Position numbers and translations under genes: made by a program
Part shown: in pieces, positions 12,135-37,098 of the stretch
How the letters are laid out: every line of letters starts with the position of its first letter
Numbering within the stretch: position 1 is the stretch's first letter
Notes under the pieces: model-generated
The model's database searches: none
What the model was told of the DNA's origin: nothing
The model's input: only the letters and a program-made list of their open reading frames with translations
Assembly: GCA_035628695.1 (NCBI GenBank)
Contig: DASPJI010000874.1
Coordinates: 1 to 37,098, forward strand
Source: Thermoanaerobaculia bacterium
GTDB lineage: Bacteria > Acidobacteriota > Thermoanaerobaculia > Multivoradales > UBA5704
Length of the DNA: 37,098 bases
Direction: 5' to 3'

Positions 12135-12157
12135 ATCGCCGGCGGGAGGGGGGAGCA

Positions 12158-12204
12158 CACGGACGAACACGGACTGACACGGGCGATCACGGACGGGCAC
12201 GGAC
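12158..12204. repeat. Five CACGGAC heptamers at exact 10-bp spacing
   Basis: CACGGAC at 12158, 12168, 12188 and 12198, and CACGGGC at 12178. The queG stop codon (12187-12189) lies inside the array. Confidence 0.85.
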
Positions 12205-13344
12205 GCCTGGAGCAGGGGGCGGTGGTGCCTCCACCCCTGGGAGGGTGGGCGGTAGGGAGTGGGGGAGGTCAGGAGGGGGGTTTCCAGCGCCGCCGATCCG
12301 CTCCAGCGCCCAGGCGGCGTGCTCCTGAACGAGCGGCGTCCCCTCTTCCAGAGCCTGGCGCAGCGCGGGGACATACCGCGCGCTCCCCCGGTTGCCCATG
12401 GCGACCGCGGCGTTCCTCTGCAGCCCCTCGAGCTTGGGGCGCTTCATCGGGTTCCCGCGGAAGCGCTCGACGTACTCGTCGCGCCCCAGGAGGAGGAGCC
12501 GGGCGAGGTCGAGCTCGCCGCGCTCGGGGGGGAGCTCCAGCTCCGGATGCGTGGAGCCCTCCGGCAGGGTGTTCCACGGGCAGGCCTCCTGGCAGAGGTC
12601 GCAGCCGAACACCCACTCCCCCACCATCTCCCGCGCCTCCGGGGGGAGGGAGCCGCGGTGCTCGATGGTCCAGTAGCTGATGCAGCGCCGGCTGTCCAGC
12701 CGGTAGGGCTCGGCGAGCGCCCCCGTCGGACAGGCCTCCAGGCAGCGCGTGCAGCTCCCGCACATGTCGGCCAGGGGGACATCCGGGGCGAGGTCCAGGG
12801 TGAGGAACAGCTCGCCGAGCAGGAACCAGGACCCGCCCTCGGGATGGAGGAGAAGCGTGTTCTTCCCCACCGCCCCCATCCCCGCCCGCGCCGCCAGCTC
12901 GCGTTCGAGGACCGGCCCGGTGTCCACGTACGGCCGGGTGTCGCACCCCGGGAACGCCTCGCGGACGCGGGCGGCGAGCGCCTTGAGCCGCGCGCCCATG
13001 ACCTCGTGGTAGTCCTTGCCCCGCGCGTACCGGGCCACGCGAGGCCAGAGGTCGCCGTCGGGCTCGGCCTCCTCCGTGCCGTCCTCCTTAGAGAGAGGAT
13101 GGTATTGGAGGGCGACGAAGAGGACGCTCCGCGCTCCCGGATGGACCTGGCCCGGATCGAGCCGCGCCTCCACCCGCCGCTCCATCCACGACATGTCCGC
13201 CTGATCCCCCCGCTCCAGCCACCGGAGCAGGGACGGCCCATGCTCCAGGGGCTCGAGCGTCGCCACCCCGGCCCGGTCGAACCCGGCCTCGAGAGCCCAG
13301 GCCTTCAACAGCTCGGCGGTGGCGCGGGGGTCGAGGGGGTCCAT
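12187..13344 (-). CDS. queG: tRNA epoxyqueuosine(34) reductase
   Basis: 4Fe-4S motifs CGSCTRCLEACPTGA and CDLCQEACPWN, and a C-terminal HEAT-like QEHAAWALERIG. I moved the start to ATG 13344 (MDPLDPRATAELLKAWALEAGFD). The last ~30 codons are read from repeat copy A. Confidence 0.9.
   Translation of the reverse strand: MDPLDPRATAELLKAWALEAGFDRAGVATLEPLEHGPSLLRWLERGDQADMSWMERRVEARLDPGQVHPGARSVLFVALQYHPLSKEDGTEEAEPDGDLWPRVARYARGKDYHEVMGARLKALAARVREAFPGCDTRPYVDTGPVLERELAARAGMGAVGKNTLLLHPEGGSWFLLGELFLTLDLAPDVPLADMCGSCTRCLEACPTGALAEPYRLDSRRCISYWTIEHRGSLPPEAREMVGEWVFGCDLCQEACPWNTLPEGSTHPELELPPERGELDLARLLLLGRDEYVERFRGNPMKRPKLEGLQRNAAVAMGNRGSARYVPALRQALEEGTPLVQEHAAWALERIGGAGNPPPDLPHSLPPTLPGVEAPPPPAPGVRARP
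12216..12282. repeat. 67-bp direct repeat, copy A (G-rich on plus strand; G4 motif at 12239-12257)
   Basis: GGGGCGGTGGTGCCTCCACCCCTGGGAGGGTGGGCGGTAGGGAGTGGGGGAGGTCAGGAGGGGGGTT. 64/67 identical to copy B by my base-by-base alignment. Confidence 0.9.
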
Positions 13345-13422
13345 GGGAGGTAGGATAACCGGCGGCGGGAGGGGAAAGTTCCCGGAGCGGCGGCGGGCCG
13401 GGAAGACGATGCGGATGCGCGA

Positions 13423-13489
13423 GGGGCGGTGGTGCCTCCCCCCCTGGGAGGGCGGGCGGTAGGGAGCGGGGGAGGTCAGGAGGGGGGTT
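13423..13489. repeat. 67-bp direct repeat, copy B (G4 motif at 13446-13464)
   Basis: GGGGCGGTGGTGCCTCCCCCCCTGGGAGGGCGGGCGGTAGGGAGCGGGGGAGGTCAGGAGGGGGGTT. Lies in the queG/ptuA divergent intergenic region. Confidence 0.9.
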
Positions 13490-13673
13490 CTTTTCCGGAC
13501 CGCCGAGCTGCCTGCGTCCCTTCGGGACTTTGGAATCAATGATTTGCCCTCTACCTGGCATTGAAATGCCAGGCTTTATGCCTGCGCCGCTTCGCGGCTG
13601 AACCGACTTCACGGCCGGCCCGCTCGGTGAGTCGGGGATAGGATAGGCCGATGCCCTATAGGGAGAACGCGTC

Positions 13674-14930
13674 TTGTACATCCAGCGAGTGAAGATCGAG
13701 AACGTCCGAGGGTTCAAGGAGGTGGACCTGGACCTCACCCGCCCCACGGGGAGTCCGGCGGGGTGGACGGTGCTCGCTGGCCGGAATGGGTCGGGGAAGT
13801 CGACGCTGCTCAAGGCGATGGCATTGGTGGCAGCCGGAGAGTGGGGTCTCAGATTTCACGAGCAGATGCGGCTTTGGGTTCGCCAGAACGAGCCGCGTGC
13901 CCGTGTCCGCGCTTTACTGAGTGAGAAGGGGCAACTGTTCGAGGAAGAACTGACATGGTCAGGTTCGGCAAGCCCTTTTGCACCAGAAAGCTTCGCGGCT
14001 CCCCCGAACCCCGCCCGGCCCGACGGATGCCTGATCGCCTACGGCCCCTATCGCCGCCTCTCCGGCCATGCCACTGACGCTCAGCGTCTCATGGAGGGAT
14101 CGTCTCCCGTCTCCCGCATGGTCAACCTCTTCCGCGAGGACGCCTCCCTCGTCGAATGCGTCACCTGGCTCCGGGAGATCTACCTCCGCCGCCTCGAGAA
14201 GAAGCCCGGCGCCGCCGAGTTGGAGAAGGCCGTTCTCTGCCTACTCAACGACGACCTACTCCCGGAGAAAACTCGCGTCGACGGCATCGACTCCGAGGCC
14301 CTCTGGGTCGTGCAACACGGCGCCCGTCTCCCTCTCCAGGAGCTGAGTGACGGCTATCGCACCACCGCCGCCCTGGTGATGGACATCGTCCGTCATCTCT
14401 ACCTCACCTTCGGAGAGCTCCGCATCGAGACCGCCACCGACGATGAAGGCACCTTCCAGCGCGTCCTCCACGAGGGCGTGGTCCTCATCGACGAGGTGGA
14501 GACCCACCTCCACGTTTCCTGGCAGAAGAAGATCGGCTTCTGGCTCAAACGCCACTTCCCCCACATCCAGTTCATCGTCACCACCCACAGCCCGTTCGTC
14601 TGCCAGGCTGCCGACCCGGGGGGCCTGATCCGGCTGCCGGCTCCAGGGGAGAACCGCCCCGTCGAGCACGTGCCAGAGTCCCTCTACTACACCGTGGTCA
14701 ACGGCGGTGCCGACGATGCCGTCCTCACGGAGCTGTTCGGGTTAGATAGCCCCTACTCGGACGAATCCGAGAAGCTCCGGGAGGAGATCGCCCAGCTCGA
14801 AGCCCGGGTGCAGCAGGGCAAGGCGACTGAAGGCGACCTCCAGAGCCTCGACCAGATGCGCTCGCGCCTCCCGCGCACCATGACCACGGATGTGGAGTTG
14901 GCCCTGAAGAAGCTCGCCGCCGACCTATGA
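13674..14930 (+). CDS. ptuA: ABC/SMC-type AAA ATPase (AAA_15/AAA_21-like), Septu PtuA-like
   Basis: N-terminal IENVRGF, Walker A GRNGSGKST, signature-like LSDGY, Walker B VVLIDEVETHLH, TTHSP, and a C-terminal coiled-coil tail. TTG start with GGGAGA 7 nt upstream. ATGA overlap with the next gene. Confidence 0.75.
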   Translation: MYIQRVKIENVRGFKEVDLDLTRPTGSPAGWTVLAGRNGSGKSTLLKAMALVAAGEWGLRFHEQMRLWVRQNEPRARVRALLSEKGQLFEEELTWSGSASPFAPESFAAPPNPARPDGCLIAYGPYRRLSGHATDAQRLMEGSSPVSRMVNLFREDASLVECVTWLREIYLRRLEKKPGAAELEKAVLCLLNDDLLPEKTRVDGIDSEALWVVQHGARLPLQELSDGYRTTAALVMDIVRHLYLTFGELRIETATDDEGTFQRVLHEGVVLIDEVETHLHVSWQKKIGFWLKRHFPHIQFIVTTHSPFVCQAADPGGLIRLPAPGENRPVEHVPESLYYTVVNGGADDAVLTELFGLDSPYSDESEKLREEIAQLEARVQQGKATEGDLQSLDQMRSRLPRTMTTDVELALKKLAADL

Positions 14931-15649
14931 GGCGCCTCCACCGGACTCCGCTCAGCGACAAAACCAGGATCTTCCTCAGGAAGCGCGCCGGCCAGGTCGC
15001 CGACGCGCTCCACCCCATCGCCGAGGCGAAGCGTCTCTGGGACCGGCTGGACAACAAGGCCTTTCGGGAGATCCGCCAGACGTTGGCCGCCATGGCGAGC
15101 GGCGTCGAGCGGTGCATGTACTGCGAGGACAGCGAAGGGACCGCCATCGAGCACTTCTGGCCCAAGGCCCTCTACCCGAAGCGCGCCTTCGACTGGAACA
15201 ACTACCTGCTCGCCTGCTCGCGCTGCAACAGCAACTACAAGCGCAACCGGTTCCCCCTCGACCCTGCCGGCCGGCCCCTCCTCGTCAATCCGGTCGAAGA
15301 GCAACCCCTCGACCACCTGGCCTTTTCGCCGTCCACCGGCCGGTATGAGCCCAGAACGAACAAAGGAAGGGCTAGCGAGGAGGTCTACGGACTGAATCGG
15401 ACGAAGTTGACCCGCGGCCGGTCCAACGCCTGGACCGTGCTCCAGAAGCTGATCGTCGTCTACGCCCAAGCCAAGGAAGAGGGAGACCTCGCCGAGGCTG
15501 CCAAGATCGAGACCGCCCTTCGGGAGCACCCGTTCGCGGGCGTCCTCGCGGCCCTCCTCCACCTCGCCGCAGGACCCGGCGCCGCCCTGGTGCACCCCGC
15601 CTCCCTCCAAGCGCTCCTGCAGAACCCCGAAATCCAGGGCTGGGCCTGA
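14927..15649 (+). CDS. ptuB: HNH endonuclease (TIGR02646-like), Septu PtuB-like
   Basis: CMYCEDSEGTAIEHFWPKALYPKRAFDWNNYLLACSRCNSNYK shows two CxxC pairs bracketing an H...N...N core. 240 aa. Translationally coupled to the ATPase. Confidence 0.75.
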   Translation: MRRLHRTPLSDKTRIFLRKRAGQVADALHPIAEAKRLWDRLDNKAFREIRQTLAAMASGVERCMYCEDSEGTAIEHFWPKALYPKRAFDWNNYLLACSRCNSNYKRNRFPLDPAGRPLLVNPVEEQPLDHLAFSPSTGRYEPRTNKGRASEEVYGLNRTKLTRGRSNAWTVLQKLIVVYAQAKEEGDLAEAAKIETALREHPFAGVLAALLHLAAGPGAALVHPASLQALLQNPEIQGWA

Positions 15650-15681
15650 GCGCCAGCCGTCGTACCCGGAGGAAGGACGGC

Positions 15682-15933
15682 CATCCCTCGTGGGGCAGCC
15701 GTTGCCCCGGCAGGAATGACCTTCATTCCTCATGGGGCAGCCATGGCCCCGACAGAAACGGACACCATTCCTGAAGGGGCAGCCACTGCCCCAACAGGAA
15801 TGATCTCCATTCCTCCTGGGGCAGCGACTGCCCCGATAGGAACGCTCTCCATTCCTCGTGGGGCAACGATGGCCCCGACAGGAATGACCACCATTCCTCA
15901 TGGGGCAGCGGCTGCCCCAGGAGGGATGAACCC
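15682..15933. repeat. Tandem array of six 42-bp nested-palindrome (hairpin) units
   Basis: CATTCCT cores at 15724, 15766, 15808, 15850 and 15892, plus CATCCCT at 15682. Unit is CATTCCT-NN-TGGGGCA-loop-TGCCCC-GA-CAGGAATG-linker. There are no spacers between units. Confidence 0.9.
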
Positions 15934-16026
15934 CGCCGCCGCTTCCGCGACGACGGGGATCTCTTCCTTATCTAAATGGGAAAGGTGGGCGGACCCCGCG
16001 AGGCGAGGCCCGCCGTCCATGCGGCG

Positions 16027-16371
16027 TCAGACTTCGAGAAAGGTGACGCCCGCGGGACTCGACGGGTCCGCGTCCTCGACGATCCGCACCACCGACCAGC
16101 GCTGCCAGGGCGCCCGCGGGTCCGGCTCCTCCTCCAGAGAGAGCCAGGAGGCATACCACCGGCCGCGGTCGTACCAGACCGTCAGCTCGGCGGCGTCGGG
16201 ACCGTAGTCGGGGATCCAGTGATTCCCCGGGTCCTCCTTCGCCATCTGGATCTCTTCAGGAGTGGGAGTGAAGTGGATTCGCACCACCAGGTCATACAGC
16301 GCCCGGCGGGTGGATTCGGTGGGACGGGACAGATCGACGCCGTTGGGCGTACGATCACTGTGGCTGGGCAT
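16027..16371 (-). CDS. Hypothetical 114-aa cytoplasmic protein, no recognisable family
   Basis: ATG at 16371 is preceded by AGGAG with 9-nt spacing. MPSHSDRTPNGVDLSRPTESTRRALYDLVVRIHFTPTPEEI...WYDRGRWYASWLSLEEEPD... looks protein-like. The upstream part of the 176-aa track ORF is Arg/Gly/Ser-rich and was discarded. Confidence 0.5.
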   Translation of the reverse strand: MPSHSDRTPNGVDLSRPTESTRRALYDLVVRIHFTPTPEEIQMAKEDPGNHWIPDYGPDAAELTVWYDRGRWYASWLSLEEEPDPRAPWQRWSVVRIVEDADPSSPAGVTFLEV

Positions 16372-16657
16372 GAGTGTTAGCTCCTGTCCGGCAAGGCCTC
16401 GGGAGGTGAGCGTCAACTCCCTCCCTTGGCCGCTTGGACTCTGACGTCTCGGATGAGACACGCGCTCACCTTGGAGAGACAGCGGTCCTCTACGGCTGTG
16501 CTGTGAACCTGCGGTTTCCTTCTCTCCCCCTACCACCTCCTTCGCAGTTCGGGACAATAACGGCGGAACGGCTGACGTGAGCCTATAACCGCCCTAGCTA
16601 CGCGTCAAGAGGAAAATCGGCTTTCGGGAAAAAGGGGAAGGGACCAGGAAGCGGGAA

Positions 16658-16681
16658 GGGGGCCGGGGGGTGAGGGCCCCC
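16658..16681 (-). terminator. GC hairpin GGGGGCC-N10-GGCCCCC downstream of the Cys-rich peptide gene
   Basis: 7-bp stem seen directly, about 20 nt after the stop codon. There is no clear U tract. Confidence 0.25.
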
Positions 16682-16698
16682 CGCAGCCCCGCTCGGTC

Positions 16699-16935
16699 CT
16701 AGCACTGAGGGCAGCAGCAGGCGATCGCGCACCGGACCTCGGCCCGATTACAGGCGACCTCGCAGGAGAGCCTGTCCGGATGACCGATCGGCGGACAATT
16801 CGCCAAGCAGTCGAAGGTCGCCAGGTAGCAGCCGCAGTCATCCCCCGAGCACGCCAGGGTGTTCGACGGGGCCACCACCACGGCCAGCAGAACGACGCAC
16901 AGCATGGCACACACGTACACCAGCTTCGCTTTCAT
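16699..16935 (-). CDS. Small secreted cysteine-rich peptide (78-aa precursor, about 50-aa mature)
   Basis: Perfect AAGGAGG 5 nt upstream of the ATG. Signal peptide MKAKLVYVCAMLCVVLLAVVVAPSNTLA followed by CSGDDCGCYLATFDCLANCPPIGHPDRLSCEVACNRAEVRCAIACCCPQC, which has 12 Cys including three CxxxC pairs. Confidence 0.7.
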   Translation of the reverse strand: MKAKLVYVCAMLCVVLLAVVVAPSNTLACSGDDCGCYLATFDCLANCPPIGHPDRLSCEVACNRAEVRCAIACCCPQC

Positions 16936-34673: not shown

Positions 34674-35687
34674 GTGCTGCCGCCGTCGGGCACCACGCCG
34701 GTGCCCGGGATCCACGTCCCCGGCGAGGAGCGCCCGTACCGGCCGCGCTACCTGCGCGCCGCCATCCTCTTCCTGCTGACCTTCTTCACCACCACCACCC
34801 TGGGGCCGGCGGTCTATCTCTGGACCCGCACCGACATGACCACGGACCTGCTGCCGTGGATGTCGCCCGGGGTGATCCGGGGGGTCTGGAGCGATCCGTT
34901 CCTCCTGCGGCTCGGCCTGTCGTTCTCGGTGCCGGTGCTGCTGATCCTCCTCGCCCACGAGCTCGGGCACTACATCGCCTGCCGGCGCTACGGCCTGTCG
35001 GCGACGCTCCCCTACTTCCTGCCGCTGCCGCTGATGCTCGGCACGCTGGGCGCCTTCATCCGCATCCGCTCGCCGATCCGCGGCAAGCGGGAGCTGTTCG
35101 ACGTGGGCGTCGCCGGCCCCCTGGCCGGCTTCGTGATGCTGGTCCCCTTCCTTCTCTATGGGGTGGCGAGGTCGGAACCGGCTCTGGTCGAGCCCGGCAT
35201 CGGCTCGCTCCTCGTCCCCGGCCACTGCCTGGCGCTGGACCTCGCGGTCCGGCTGTTCCACGGCCCGCTGGAGGAGGGGATGGTGATGAACTTCCATCCC
35301 TTCGCCCTGGCCGCCTGGTTCGGCCTGCTGGCGACTGCGATCAACCTGATCCCCCTGGGCCAGCTCGACGGCGGCCACATCCTCTACGCGGCGGCGGGGC
35401 GCTGGCAGAGGCGGCTGGCGGTGCCCATCTGGCTGCTGCTCGCCGTCGCCGGCTTCTCCTGGTCGGGCTGGTGGGTCTGGTGCGTGATGGTCCTGCTGAT
35501 GGGCCTCTTCCATCCGCCGGTGCGGAACGAGCGCCAGCCCCTGGACCGCAAGCGGATCCTCCTCGCCTGGGTCGCCCTGGCGGTGCTGATCCTCTCCTTC
35601 ATCCCTCGCGGCGTGGAGGAGTACCAGACCCCGACGCGCCCCGGGCCGGGCGAGGGCTCGGGGGTGTTCGTGGCGCTCCGGCCGTAG
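34674..35687 (+). CDS. Site-2 protease family (M50) membrane metalloprotease
   Basis: HELGHY zinc motif within a polytopic membrane protein, and NLIPLGQLDGGHI (the second M50 motif). GTG start. Confidence 0.85.
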   Translation: MLPPSGTTPVPGIHVPGEERPYRPRYLRAAILFLLTFFTTTTLGPAVYLWTRTDMTTDLLPWMSPGVIRGVWSDPFLLRLGLSFSVPVLLILLAHELGHYIACRRYGLSATLPYFLPLPLMLGTLGAFIRIRSPIRGKRELFDVGVAGPLAGFVMLVPFLLYGVARSEPALVEPGIGSLLVPGHCLALDLAVRLFHGPLEEGMVMNFHPFALAAWFGLLATAINLIPLGQLDGGHILYAAAGRWQRRLAVPIWLLLAVAGFSWSGWWVWCVMVLLMGLFHPPVRNERQPLDRKRILLAWVALAVLILSFIPRGVEEYQTPTRPGPGEGSGVFVALRP

Positions 35688-35696
35688 CCCCCACCC

Positions 35697-35918
35697 TCCA
35701 GACGCTTCGGATCGCGTCCGAATGCTTCGGACGCGATCCGAAGCGGCCGGGAAGCGATCCGGGTCTCTCGGACGGCATCCAGACGGCCTGGACGAGATCC
35801 GAAGCGCTCGGGAAGAATCCAGGCCTTCCGGATCACGTCCAAACGCTCTGGACGCGATCCGCAGCGTTCGGATGCCGTCCACGGCGCCCGGACGCGCTCC
35901 GGCGGGCTCGGGAGCCGG
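35697..35918. repeat. About 11 tandem copies of a 20-bp (one 21-bp) unit, consensus TCCGAAGCGCTCGGACGCGA
   Basis: Units start at 35697, 35717, 35737, 35758, 35778, 35798, 35818, 35838, 35858, 35878 and 35898. TCCRA and TCGGA-like pentamers alternate about every 10 bp. Confidence 0.85.
35703..35745 (+). terminator. Perfect 20-bp-stem hairpin (3-nt loop) 16 nt after the M50 stop; candidate terminator
   Basis: CGCTTCGGATCGCGTCCGAA-TGC-TTCGGACGCGATCCGAAGCG, verified base by base. No U tract. Confidence 0.4.
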
Positions 35919-36052
35919 CCCCGGCTGCCGAATCGGCTCGGCGCCGGCTGGATCGAGGATCTTGACGCAGTTGCTCAAAGCACCCAAGATAGGCGGCGCC
36001 ACTTGCTCCACAGGTCCACCCTGATACCCGGGTACCACCGGAAGGAGGCCTC

Positions 36053-36898
36053 ATGCCGGGAGACCGTCGTCGCCTGTCCACGCTCCGCTCCGCCGTCGCG
36101 CTGCCGCTGCTCTCCGCCCTGCTGCTCGCCGCCTCGGGTTGTGCCACCACCCGCCAGCCCCGCAGCCTGGAGGAGCTCTGGAAGGAGTACGAGCAGGCGG
36201 TGGAGGCCGCCAAGTACCCGGCGCCCGGCCGCGTCTCGCGCAGCCTGATCGCCATCACGACGTTCACGCCGGGACTGGTATGGGACGAGAGCGGGCAGAA
36301 GGTCCTCATGGCGACGTGGACCAAGGCGAAGTACTACACGGGACAGCCGCCCTACGAGACGACGGTCCCGGCGCCGGTGTGGCTGACCGCCGTGCCGTTC
36401 CTCCAAGGGTTCTGCCAGCGGAGCGGGCTGCAGGGCGAGTCCCTCCGGGTCCGGCTGGCCGAGCGGCTCGGGATGCCTCCTGACAGCGCCAACGACGTCT
36501 TCGTGCAGATGTGGGTCGACCCGCAGGACTTCTTCCGTCCCTGCCCGGACCCGGAGGTCAACGACAGCCAGTGCCAGGTGAACCTCACCACCGGTCCGGT
36601 GGACCGGTCGGCCGACTGTCCCTGGAGCGCCGCCCTGGCCGGCCAGGTCTCCGGCAACTTCGTGTCCGTGACCCAGAGCCAGATCGAGTGGATGTGCAGG
36701 AACTGGGAGAAATCCTACCCGGCCGGCGAGCCGCGCAAGAGCTATCCATGGACGGCCCTCGGCTACACCTACGACTGGGGGGCGAAGAGCTTCTACGGCG
36801 AGAGCGAGTTCGTCCTCCCGCCCGACTCCACGGTCACCGTCCAGTCCATCACTCCGATGGACGCGTACTGCGCCCGCGCCGGCTCGCGCGCGCGCTGA
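36053..36898 (+). CDS. Lipoprotein of unknown function
   Basis: GGAAGGAGG 5 nt upstream of the ATG. Signal peptide with lipobox LAASGC. 281 aa containing several Cys. Confidence 0.7.
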   Translation: MPGDRRRLSTLRSAVALPLLSALLLAASGCATTRQPRSLEELWKEYEQAVEAAKYPAPGRVSRSLIAITTFTPGLVWDESGQKVLMATWTKAKYYTGQPPYETTVPAPVWLTAVPFLQGFCQRSGLQGESLRVRLAERLGMPPDSANDVFVQMWVDPQDFFRPCPDPEVNDSQCQVNLTTGPVDRSADCPWSAALAGQVSGNFVSVTQSQIEWMCRNWEKSYPAGEPRKSYPWTALGYTYDWGAKSFYGESEFVLPPDSTVTVQSITPMDAYCARAGSRAR

Positions 36899-36928
36899 GC
36901 GGCACGCGCCTCGCATAACGTCCTGGTC

Positions 36929-36955
36929 CCACCCCTCGGCCCCTCCGAGGGGTGG
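36929..36955 (+). terminator. Hairpin CCACCCCTCGG-CCCCT-CCGAGGGGTGG after the lipoprotein gene
   Basis: 11-bp perfect stem with a 5-nt loop, about 30 nt after the stop. Confidence 0.4.
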
Positions 36956-37025
36956 TGCTAGGATGCCGCCCTCCCGCTCCGCCGGAGCGGTTTCCCACCT
37001 TCTACGACCAAAGACGGATATCGCT

Positions 37026-37098
37026 GTGCAACCTGGAAGAGAACGACAGCTCGTGACCGCCTCGGTGATGCTGGGCATGTTCCTGGCCGCGCTCGACC
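37026..37098 (+). CDS. Start of a probable MFS (DHA2/EmrB-like) transporter, truncated by the window end
   Basis: My translation is VQPGRERQLVTASVMLGMFLAALD... The MLGxFxAxLD pattern is typical of TM1 in DHA2 MFS exporters. Start codon is uncertain (GTG 37026 or 37053). Confidence 0.35.
   Translation, partial: MQPGRERQLVTASVMLGMFLAALD

Follow-up and report, generated by a model that had tools for sequence, protein, structure and literature searches.

Mycobacterial MIRUs are intergenic tandem repeats of 40–100 bp, which occur at many loci in variable copy number, are non-palindromic and carry small ORFs coupled to flanking genes. The pneumococcal BOX elements, organised as boxA-(boxB)n-boxC (Croucher et al. 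2011, PMC3049150), are dispersed, intergenic and modular, with end modules flanking tandem units of ~45 nt, the number of which differs from locus to locus and from strain to strain. Their predicted secondary structure is extensive, and they are co-transcribed with their neighbours and enriched after the 3′ ends of genes. The REP/BIME elements of enterobacteria and pseudomonads, especially BIME-2, and the REPIN-RAYT systems (Bertels & Rainey 2011, PMC3116915, PMC3337134) are built of imperfect palindromes of ~35 nt, which are extragenic, lineage-specific, present in many copies per genome and clustered in arrays; protection of mRNA 3′ ends and transcription attenuation have been proposed as their roles. 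For both REP/BIME and BOX, effects on co-transcribed genes have been reported (PMC3049150). Retron-linked Septu systems require a reverse transcriptase (RT) and an ncRNA (PMC12819146, PMC12673091).

The array of six tandem 42-nt units described here lies 3′ of the ptuAB genes of a Thermoanaerobaculia bacterium, in a stretch of 37,098 nucleotides that was analysed as a whole (the window). The 42-nt family to which it belongs resembles BOX in being dispersed, intergenic and modular and in having end modules around tandem units of variable number; a predicted secondary structure, a presumed co-transcription with neighbours and an apparent enrichment after gene 3′ ends are further likenesses. Unlike BOX, it has no evident sequence relation to boxA, boxB and boxC, resides in Acidobacteriota and not in a Firmicute, has a nested palindrome in every internal unit and ends on the right with a terminator-like hairpin, not with a boxC pairing with boxA. 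With REP/BIME the family has in common the ~35-nt imperfect palindromes, the extragenic location, the many copies per genome, the clustered arrays, the restriction to a lineage and the proposed mRNA 3′-end protection and transcription attenuation. Unlike REP/BIME, its units run directly head-to-tail and not as alternating inverted REPs or inverted doublets, its consensus has no conserved 5′ GTAG and its hairpin is nested. No Y1 transposase (RAYT) was found among the annotated ORFs beside the arrays. MIRUs are similar in their intergenic tandem organisation, in copy number variation at many loci and in a period divisible by three, but the 42-nt units are palindromic and non-coding. Judged by its sequence and organisation, the family is outside both BOX and BIME-2/REP, though these are its nearest analogues.

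The window is chromosomal, with a G+C content of 70% and the housekeeping genes lpxB, rpsA, queG, uvrC, uvrB and prs and a gene for a class A PBP. Judged by the homologues of PtuB, the organism belongs to Thermoanaerobaculia, Acidobacteriota. The initial annotation had named the two genes upstream of the array as ptuA and ptuB, and PADLOC confirmed this with E-values of 1e-141 and 1.6e-74, respectively. The features of the locus, together with a second array of the window, are as follows.

13674–14930 and 14927–15649, plus strand: ptuA and ptuB, the Septu operon (PADLOC).
15661–15681, plus strand: left end, a degenerate 21-nt half-unit CGTACCC-GG-AGGAAGG-ACGGC (sequence).
15682–15933, plus strand: six tandem 42-nt nested-hairpin units, U1–U6 (sequence, TRF, motif count, folds).
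15931–15973, plus strand: T1, right end of the element, with the hairpin at 15931–15958 (sequence).
15987–16014, minus strand: T2, a 12-bp GC hairpin immediately downstream of the p114 stop codon (fold, −25.3 kcal/mol).
16027–16371, minus strand: p114, a 114-aa gene convergent to ptuAB (conservation, paralogue loci).
16372–16608, minus strand: promoter-like TTGACG-15 nt-TATAGG (16608–16582) and ~190-nt leader of p114 (alignment).
35697–35900: second array, about ten units with a 20–21-nt period, TTCGGA-N5-TCCGAA type.

The units begin at positions 15682, 15724, 15766, 15808, 15850 and 15892, in an exact 42-bp register, and follow head-to-tail the pattern CATTCCT-N3-GGGGCA-N5-TGCCCC-N3-AGGAATG-N5. 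The plus orientation of the array was set by the C-rich linkers and the downstream T1. Deviations in the arms are found in U1 (CATCCCT), U2 (GGCCCC and AGAAACG), U4 (AGGAACG), U5 (GGCCCC) and U6 (AGGGATG). TRF reports a period of 42 with 5.9 copies and 77% matches. A search for the half-motif with up to three mismatches gave 12 matches, six per strand, all within the array, while 0.02 were expected from shuffles. Sequence, TRF and folds all bear out the six 42-bp nested palindromic units in exact register that the initial annotation had proposed. The loop variation noted there also stands, with a correction of the lengths, as all loops are of 5 nt (gccgt, gccat, gccac, gcgac, acgat and gcggc). 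The distance from the ptuB stop codon (15647–15649), given earlier as 33 nt, is 32 nt. The array is located in the ptuAB 3′ region.

For each 37-nt unit, a nested hairpin is predicted on either strand, with energies between −10 and −27 kcal/mol and with two stems and a 3 × 3 internal loop between them; the minus strand gives a complete predicted fold for all six. In an alternative parse, GGGGCA-N5-TGCCCC and AGGAATG-N5-CATTCCT are separate small hairpins that take turns every 21 nt. Because each unit is palindromic, one long hairpin is possible for the whole array, which is 74% self-complementary and foldable as a giant hairpin with z = −11 on the plus strand and z = −15 on the minus strand. 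The variant arm CATCCCT of U1 matches AGGGATG of U6, and for U2 and U5 no complementarity beyond the consensus was seen by eye with respect to a giant hairpin or cruciform. Plus-strand A·C mismatches, equal to G·U on the minus strand, number 44, versus 24 plus-strand G·U, and the fold is slightly better on the minus than on the plus strand. These values are suggestive but not decisive of an action of the array on the minus strand, and a transition bias could be an alternative cause of the A·C excess.

The array units have no U tract, and the tails of T1 and T2 are T-rich but imperfect. T1 consists of CCCCGCCGCCGC-TTCC-GCGACGACGGGG and then, on the plus strand, ATCTCTTCCTTATCT as a T-rich tail; it resembles a terminator of transcripts from the plus strand (ptuAB). 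T2 is followed by the T-rich ACCTTTCCCATTT on the minus strand, is kept after every p114 paralogue and is likely the p114 terminator. A simple promoter and terminator scan of positions 15400–16700 called nothing; T1 was left uncalled because its T tract is imperfect. The location of the array, after the ptuB stop codon and ahead of T1, makes it the probable 3′ UTR of ptuAB.

The period of the array is a multiple of three and one plus-strand frame is open across it (ORF 15716–16207), as would suit a protein-coding repeat with 14-residue tandem units IPxGAAxAPTGMxx. However, the GC3 of this frame is 0.52, compared to 0.83–0.98 in the real genes of the window, and the ORF runs antisense into the conserved p114. 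The other frames hold stop codons, no Pfam match was obtained and the arrays of the family occur in both orientations and in variable contexts. A coding origin has hardly any credibility, being excluded by GC3 and stop codons. The regular period and the palindromic repeats may also recall a degenerate CRISPR-like array or an iteron cluster for replication or partition; sopC of F, for instance, is a set of 43-bp repeats containing inverted repeats. Here, however, the units abut with linkers of only 5 nt and there are no spacers, in agreement with the initial rejection of a CRISPR. No cas, rep or par genes are present nearby, the context is that of chromosomal housekeeping genes and there are many copies per genome, which makes this reading, too, extremely improbable. 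Rfam, run on the array with gathering and E-value thresholds, returned sub-threshold miRNA-like hairpin noise only.

The distribution of the units was studied with a motif scan of JGI metagenomes, which revealed 13 contigs from one sample (Ga0196965), with 1–7 units each in the 42-nt register. A fourteenth contig, L073, was found via a protein look-up, and the count is thus a lower bound (at least 14). Members of the 42-nt family are found at loci L042, L052–L055, L057, L060–L065, L067, L068 and L072/L073. The neighbours of the arrays have no relation to one another or to Septu and include genes for an ABC transporter, baeRF, HMA, GDSL lipase, CrcB, GcvT, a small HNH protein, GH25 lysozyme, MsrB, acyltransferase, BNR, MMPL and epimerase. 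The flanking proteins of L053, L055, L060 and L067 and the p114 of L072 share accessions or locus tags of the HYG6xxxx.1 and VEL74_ series, and hence at least five arrays belong to one NCBI Thermoanaerobaculia MAG. This dispersal is seen in a related MAG with flanks 77–84% identical, not in the same strain; the 37-kb window contains one copy only of a 42-nt family array. In this close relative, the repeat is dispersed over unrelated intergenic sites and not locus-specific, which supports the REP/BIME-like repeat that had been named initially as the null hypothesis. Arrays stand just after the stop codon of a co-oriented gene in the window and at L042, L054, L055 and L060. Because the arrays of L052 and L053 have no co-oriented upstream gene, a 3′-UTR role is not general.

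When 185,579 GTDB representative genomes were scanned for the exact motif, 40 single matches were obtained, none of them tandem and most representing one unrelated proteobacterial mobile-element sequence; no GTDB representative genome carries the 42-nt family. A scan of viral contigs gave two single chance matches only. The chance-level motif matches drew attention to a stretch of more than 130 nt (…CATCCCTAACGGGGCATTCGCTGCCCCTGCGGGCGGTG…), identical or nearly so in many genera of Beta- and Gammaproteobacteria (L005, L006, L008, L012, L015, L020, L023, L024, L028, L031, L033, L035, L038, L039, L041 and others), which presumably belongs to some widely distributed mobile element and has no connection with the 42-nt array.

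Other repeats were observed in the window and in the clade. A G-rich repeat of ~70 nt, designated R2, flanks queG on both sides (12213–12283 and 13423–13489, with 12157–12205 noted in addition; the two copies 95% identical), and one copy adjoins a 10-nt tandem repeat, (CACGGACGNN)n. R2 recurs with ~92% identity beside arrays and p114 modules in L054, L063, L069, L071 and L072. The Rfam family Acido-Lenti-1 has a match of 43 bits, above the gathering threshold, on the plus strand at 13554–13599, between queG and ptuA. There are two copies of it in L071 and an inverted copy in L042, and part of the motif (TTCAGCCGCGAAGCGGCGC) follows the array in L072. Being multi-copy in the clade, Acido-Lenti-1 behaves as another dispersed repeat.

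The position of the array immediately 3′ of ptuB and its very stable predicted hairpins speak for a structured RNA or DNA partner of Septu, an idea put forward in the initial annotation. In that case, the product of the array would be a structured RNA or ssDNA with specific binding to PtuAB and control over it, in the manner of the msDNA of retron-linked Septu (Ec78/Eco7), where a nucleic-acid partner exists (PMC12819146, PMC12673091). The locus is similar to the type I-A retron-Septu (Ec78/Eco7; PMC12819146, PMC12673091), with its ncRNA/msDNA, in that a structured nucleic acid is encoded beside ptuAB. Unlike it, the array comes without an RT gene or msr/msd, is not conserved with ptuAB and is dispersed elsewhere. 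No reverse transcriptase gene was found near ptuAB among the tested ORFs (the flanks being queG and p114/uvrC), and the msr/msd architecture of retrons is absent beside ptuAB. For stand-alone Septu, no need for a nucleic-acid cofactor is known.

The orthologous ptuAB loci bear directly on this idea. At L042 (PtuB 90% identical), the same 42-nt family is present with six units, reshuffled compared to the window. L043 (86%) has the same flanks, ptuB on one side and T1, T2 and p114 on the other, enclosing some eleven units of 21 nt with another sequence (CCAAGGGACGGCAACGCTCTC) and one relic hairpin of the 42-nt type. In L049 (82%), other hairpins follow ptuB before the contig ends. The more distant L044, L048, L076/77 and L078/79 (PtuB 63–70%) keep queG-ptuA-ptuB, with a methyltransferase gene following ptuB directly or within 115 nt, and no tandem array with a period of 15 or more was found across their ~75 kb. 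The same units also have at least 12 unrelated genes as neighbours and are scattered over many intergenic sites of the related genome that have no relation to one another; at orthologous ptuAB loci, the units are missing or replaced and do not co-occur with ptuAB. Since copies are scattered between unrelated genes, the array is a REP/BOX-like genomic repeat and not a dedicated Septu partner. The partner reading is already largely refuted, and we consider it very improbable. Some hairpin array is nevertheless kept at the ptuAB spot in all four closest relatives, a retention that could reflect selection for an array there rather than only a hot spot.

As for the operon itself, the synteny queG-ptuA-ptuB, seen at L044, L048 and L076–L079 versus positions 12187–15649 of the window, extends across Thermoanaerobaculia at PtuB identities of 63–90% and is unusually stable for a defence system. 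In the relatives, ptuB is usually followed by genes for a SAM methyltransferase and AhpC. The PtuA of L079 is 583 aa long, with a weak TIR_2 match. The GC3 of ptuAB (0.83–0.89) is lower than that of the neighbouring genes (0.95–0.98). The short-read contigs L046, L047, L049, L001 and L042, from several samples, end within or just after the region 3′ of ptuB, which is consistent with repeat-induced assembly breaks.

The elements of the 42-nt family have a modular build, namely a 21-nt half-unit, 1–7 units of 42 nt with the consensus CATTCCTCnTGGGGCAGCGGTTGCCCCGnCAGGAATG and, often, T1. In the window, the left-end half-unit corresponds to the outer arms without the inner hairpin. Half-units of 21 nt (CATTYCT-N3-AGRAAYG and CGTACCC-GG-GGTACGG) are found before or beside the 42-nt units in L052, L053, L061, L067 and L068, and runs of 21-nt units stand beside 42-nt units in L052, L061, L067 and L068. 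Within each array, all units are head-to-tail in one orientation with the 42-nt period; among loci, orientation and context vary, and both orientations are found. A T1-like hairpin marks the right end of 10 of about 16 arrays, and T1 homologues follow the arrays of L043, L052, L053, L054, L060, L062, L067 and L072. The left end and T1 are not complementary, and neither terminal inverted repeats nor target-site duplications were seen. On the contig of L065, a separate 25-nt tandem repeat at 1896–2089 (7.7 copies, 90% match, GGTTGTCGGATAGTCGAGATCGTGA) was noted together with the 42-nt array.

Sister arrays with a period of ~20–21 nt and unrelated sequences are present in L043, L069 and L071 and at 35697–35900 of the window. 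The earlier statement that nothing similar occurs elsewhere in the window holds for the 42-nt sequence family; it does not hold for the architecture, which the array at 35697–35900 shares. The latter begins ~10 nt after the stop codon of an M50 peptidase gene (34674–35687, plus strand), precedes a convergent ORF (35975–37078, minus strand) and is 69% similar to the array 3′ of a p114 paralogue in L069 (3943–4118).

The conservation of the arms had been taken initially as a sign of selection on structure. In 60 units, no pair with both sides altered by compensatory change was found, while shuffled controls give more such pairs, and 93% of the stem cells are paired, which is no better than in the shuffled control. 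As compensatory change is absent, it is the sequence of the arms that is conserved, as would be expected after recent copying or homogenisation of a repeat; the earlier reading is unsupported by covariation, and structure-specific selection on the arms cannot be claimed.

The convergent 114-aa ORF, p114, reported initially, is a real conserved gene and the most frequent companion of the arrays elsewhere; in the window, uvrC lies beyond it. At close range, p114 is confined to the clade, with 17 clusters among 5.8 billion. It is multi-copy, with three paralogues bearing VEL74 locus tags and seven distinct loci in Ga0196965. No Pfam, PHROG or PDB-sequence match was obtained for p114, nor a Foldseek PDB match with E < 0.8 for its AlphaFold (AF2) model (pLDDT 77.5). 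A profile search retrieved 187 representative relatives, a few of them with N-terminal helix-hairpin-helix (HhH) motifs; in the distant homologues P0277 and P0212, the p114-like domain is C-terminal to such motifs. An assignment of P0277, the fusion of HhH motifs with a p114-like domain, as a UvrC fragment was considered and rejected.

Every p114 copy has an upstream TTGACG-15-TATAG(G/T) and a ~190-nt leader, as follows from the alignment of seven paralogous or orthologous copies (window, L043, L052, L063, L069, L071 and L072). The leader is more conserved than the ORF and contains a hairpin, GGCCAAGGGAGGGAG-N5-CTCaCCTCCCGAGGCC, as well as an anti-SD-like CACCTCC. Rfam gave no match to the leader, and covariation is weak, the copies being too similar. 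The leader is a candidate for a new cis-regulatory RNA. Between uvrC and the p114 promoter, a 78-aa ORF (16699–16935, minus strand) with a strong SD, AAGGAGG, has a signal-peptide-like N-terminus and a cysteine-rich C-terminal half (~14 Cys), and may encode a secreted Cys-rich peptide; it sits within a locally AT-rich stretch, with a GC hairpin after it.

The order p114-T2-T1-hairpin array is found in eight of nine loci (window, L043, L052, L062, L063, L069, L072 and, as a relic, L054, which retains only the last ~40 nt of p114), and the array family in this order varies between loci. Such an association, in which p114 and the arrays are limited to the same narrow clade, sequence-unrelated sister arrays share a period of ~21 nt and the arms are conserved as sequence without covariation, may point to a dedicated protein. 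The arrays would be phased binding sites or substrates of p114 or of an undetected RAYT-like transposase that spreads or maintains them, in a REPIN-RAYT-like system of a new type; the periods of 20–21 and 42 nt would correspond to two and four helical turns and align the sites along one side of the helix. The p114-like domain C-terminal to HhH motifs in some distant homologues also agrees with this. However, p114 is missing from the vicinity of at least six arrays (L053, L055, L057, L060, L064 and L067), and at L071 there is p114 without an array. In addition, no nuclease, transposase or DNA-binding fold can be recognised in p114, the gene is multi-copy while RAYTs are single-copy, and simple co-duplication of adjacent DNA would explain the association equally well. 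A role of a dedicated protein is accordingly regarded as unlikely. Likewise unlikely is the proposal that the 20–21- and 42-nt arrays, p114 and the leader RNA constitute a new repeat-protein system, where a small lineage-specific protein or an unseen partner recognises, phases or propagates the arrays. If true, it would be a functional analogue of REPIN-RAYT made from different parts, bringing terminator cassettes to the 3′ ends of genes.

Most likely, a presumed 3′-UTR role included, the array 3′ of ptuB is a single insertion or expansion of a dispersed, non-coding repeat that is specific to a subclade of uncultured Thermoanaerobaculia. Copy number and unit order in the family change quickly, presumably by slippage, unequal exchange or conversion between units, and sister-family arrays of 20–21-nt period take the place of whole arrays. 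By analogy with REP/BIME or BOX elsewhere, the row of six hairpins, at −15 to −27 kcal/mol, could form a barrier to 3′–5′ exonucleases and could brake read-through where the ptuAB and p114/uvrC transcripts converge; it would not act as a ligand that PtuAB recognises by sequence. A local role as a 3′-UTR hairpin barrier or a terminator-proximal insulator is likely on this analogy, and the array may also be without any selected function.

For the biology of Septu, the analysis removes a false lead, that of a retron-like nucleic-acid partner for stand-alone Septu. A literature search on repeats in Thermoanaerobaculia gave nothing relevant among the matches listed, and the 42-nt family, with its unusual, strict nested-hairpin register, appears to be a hitherto undescribed group of small, dispersed repeats from an uncultured class of Acidobacteriota. 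Arrays of this kind break short-read assemblies, with several contigs ending there, and are possible strain markers. They also raise the questions of what sets the common period and why arrays often adjoin one multi-copy small gene.
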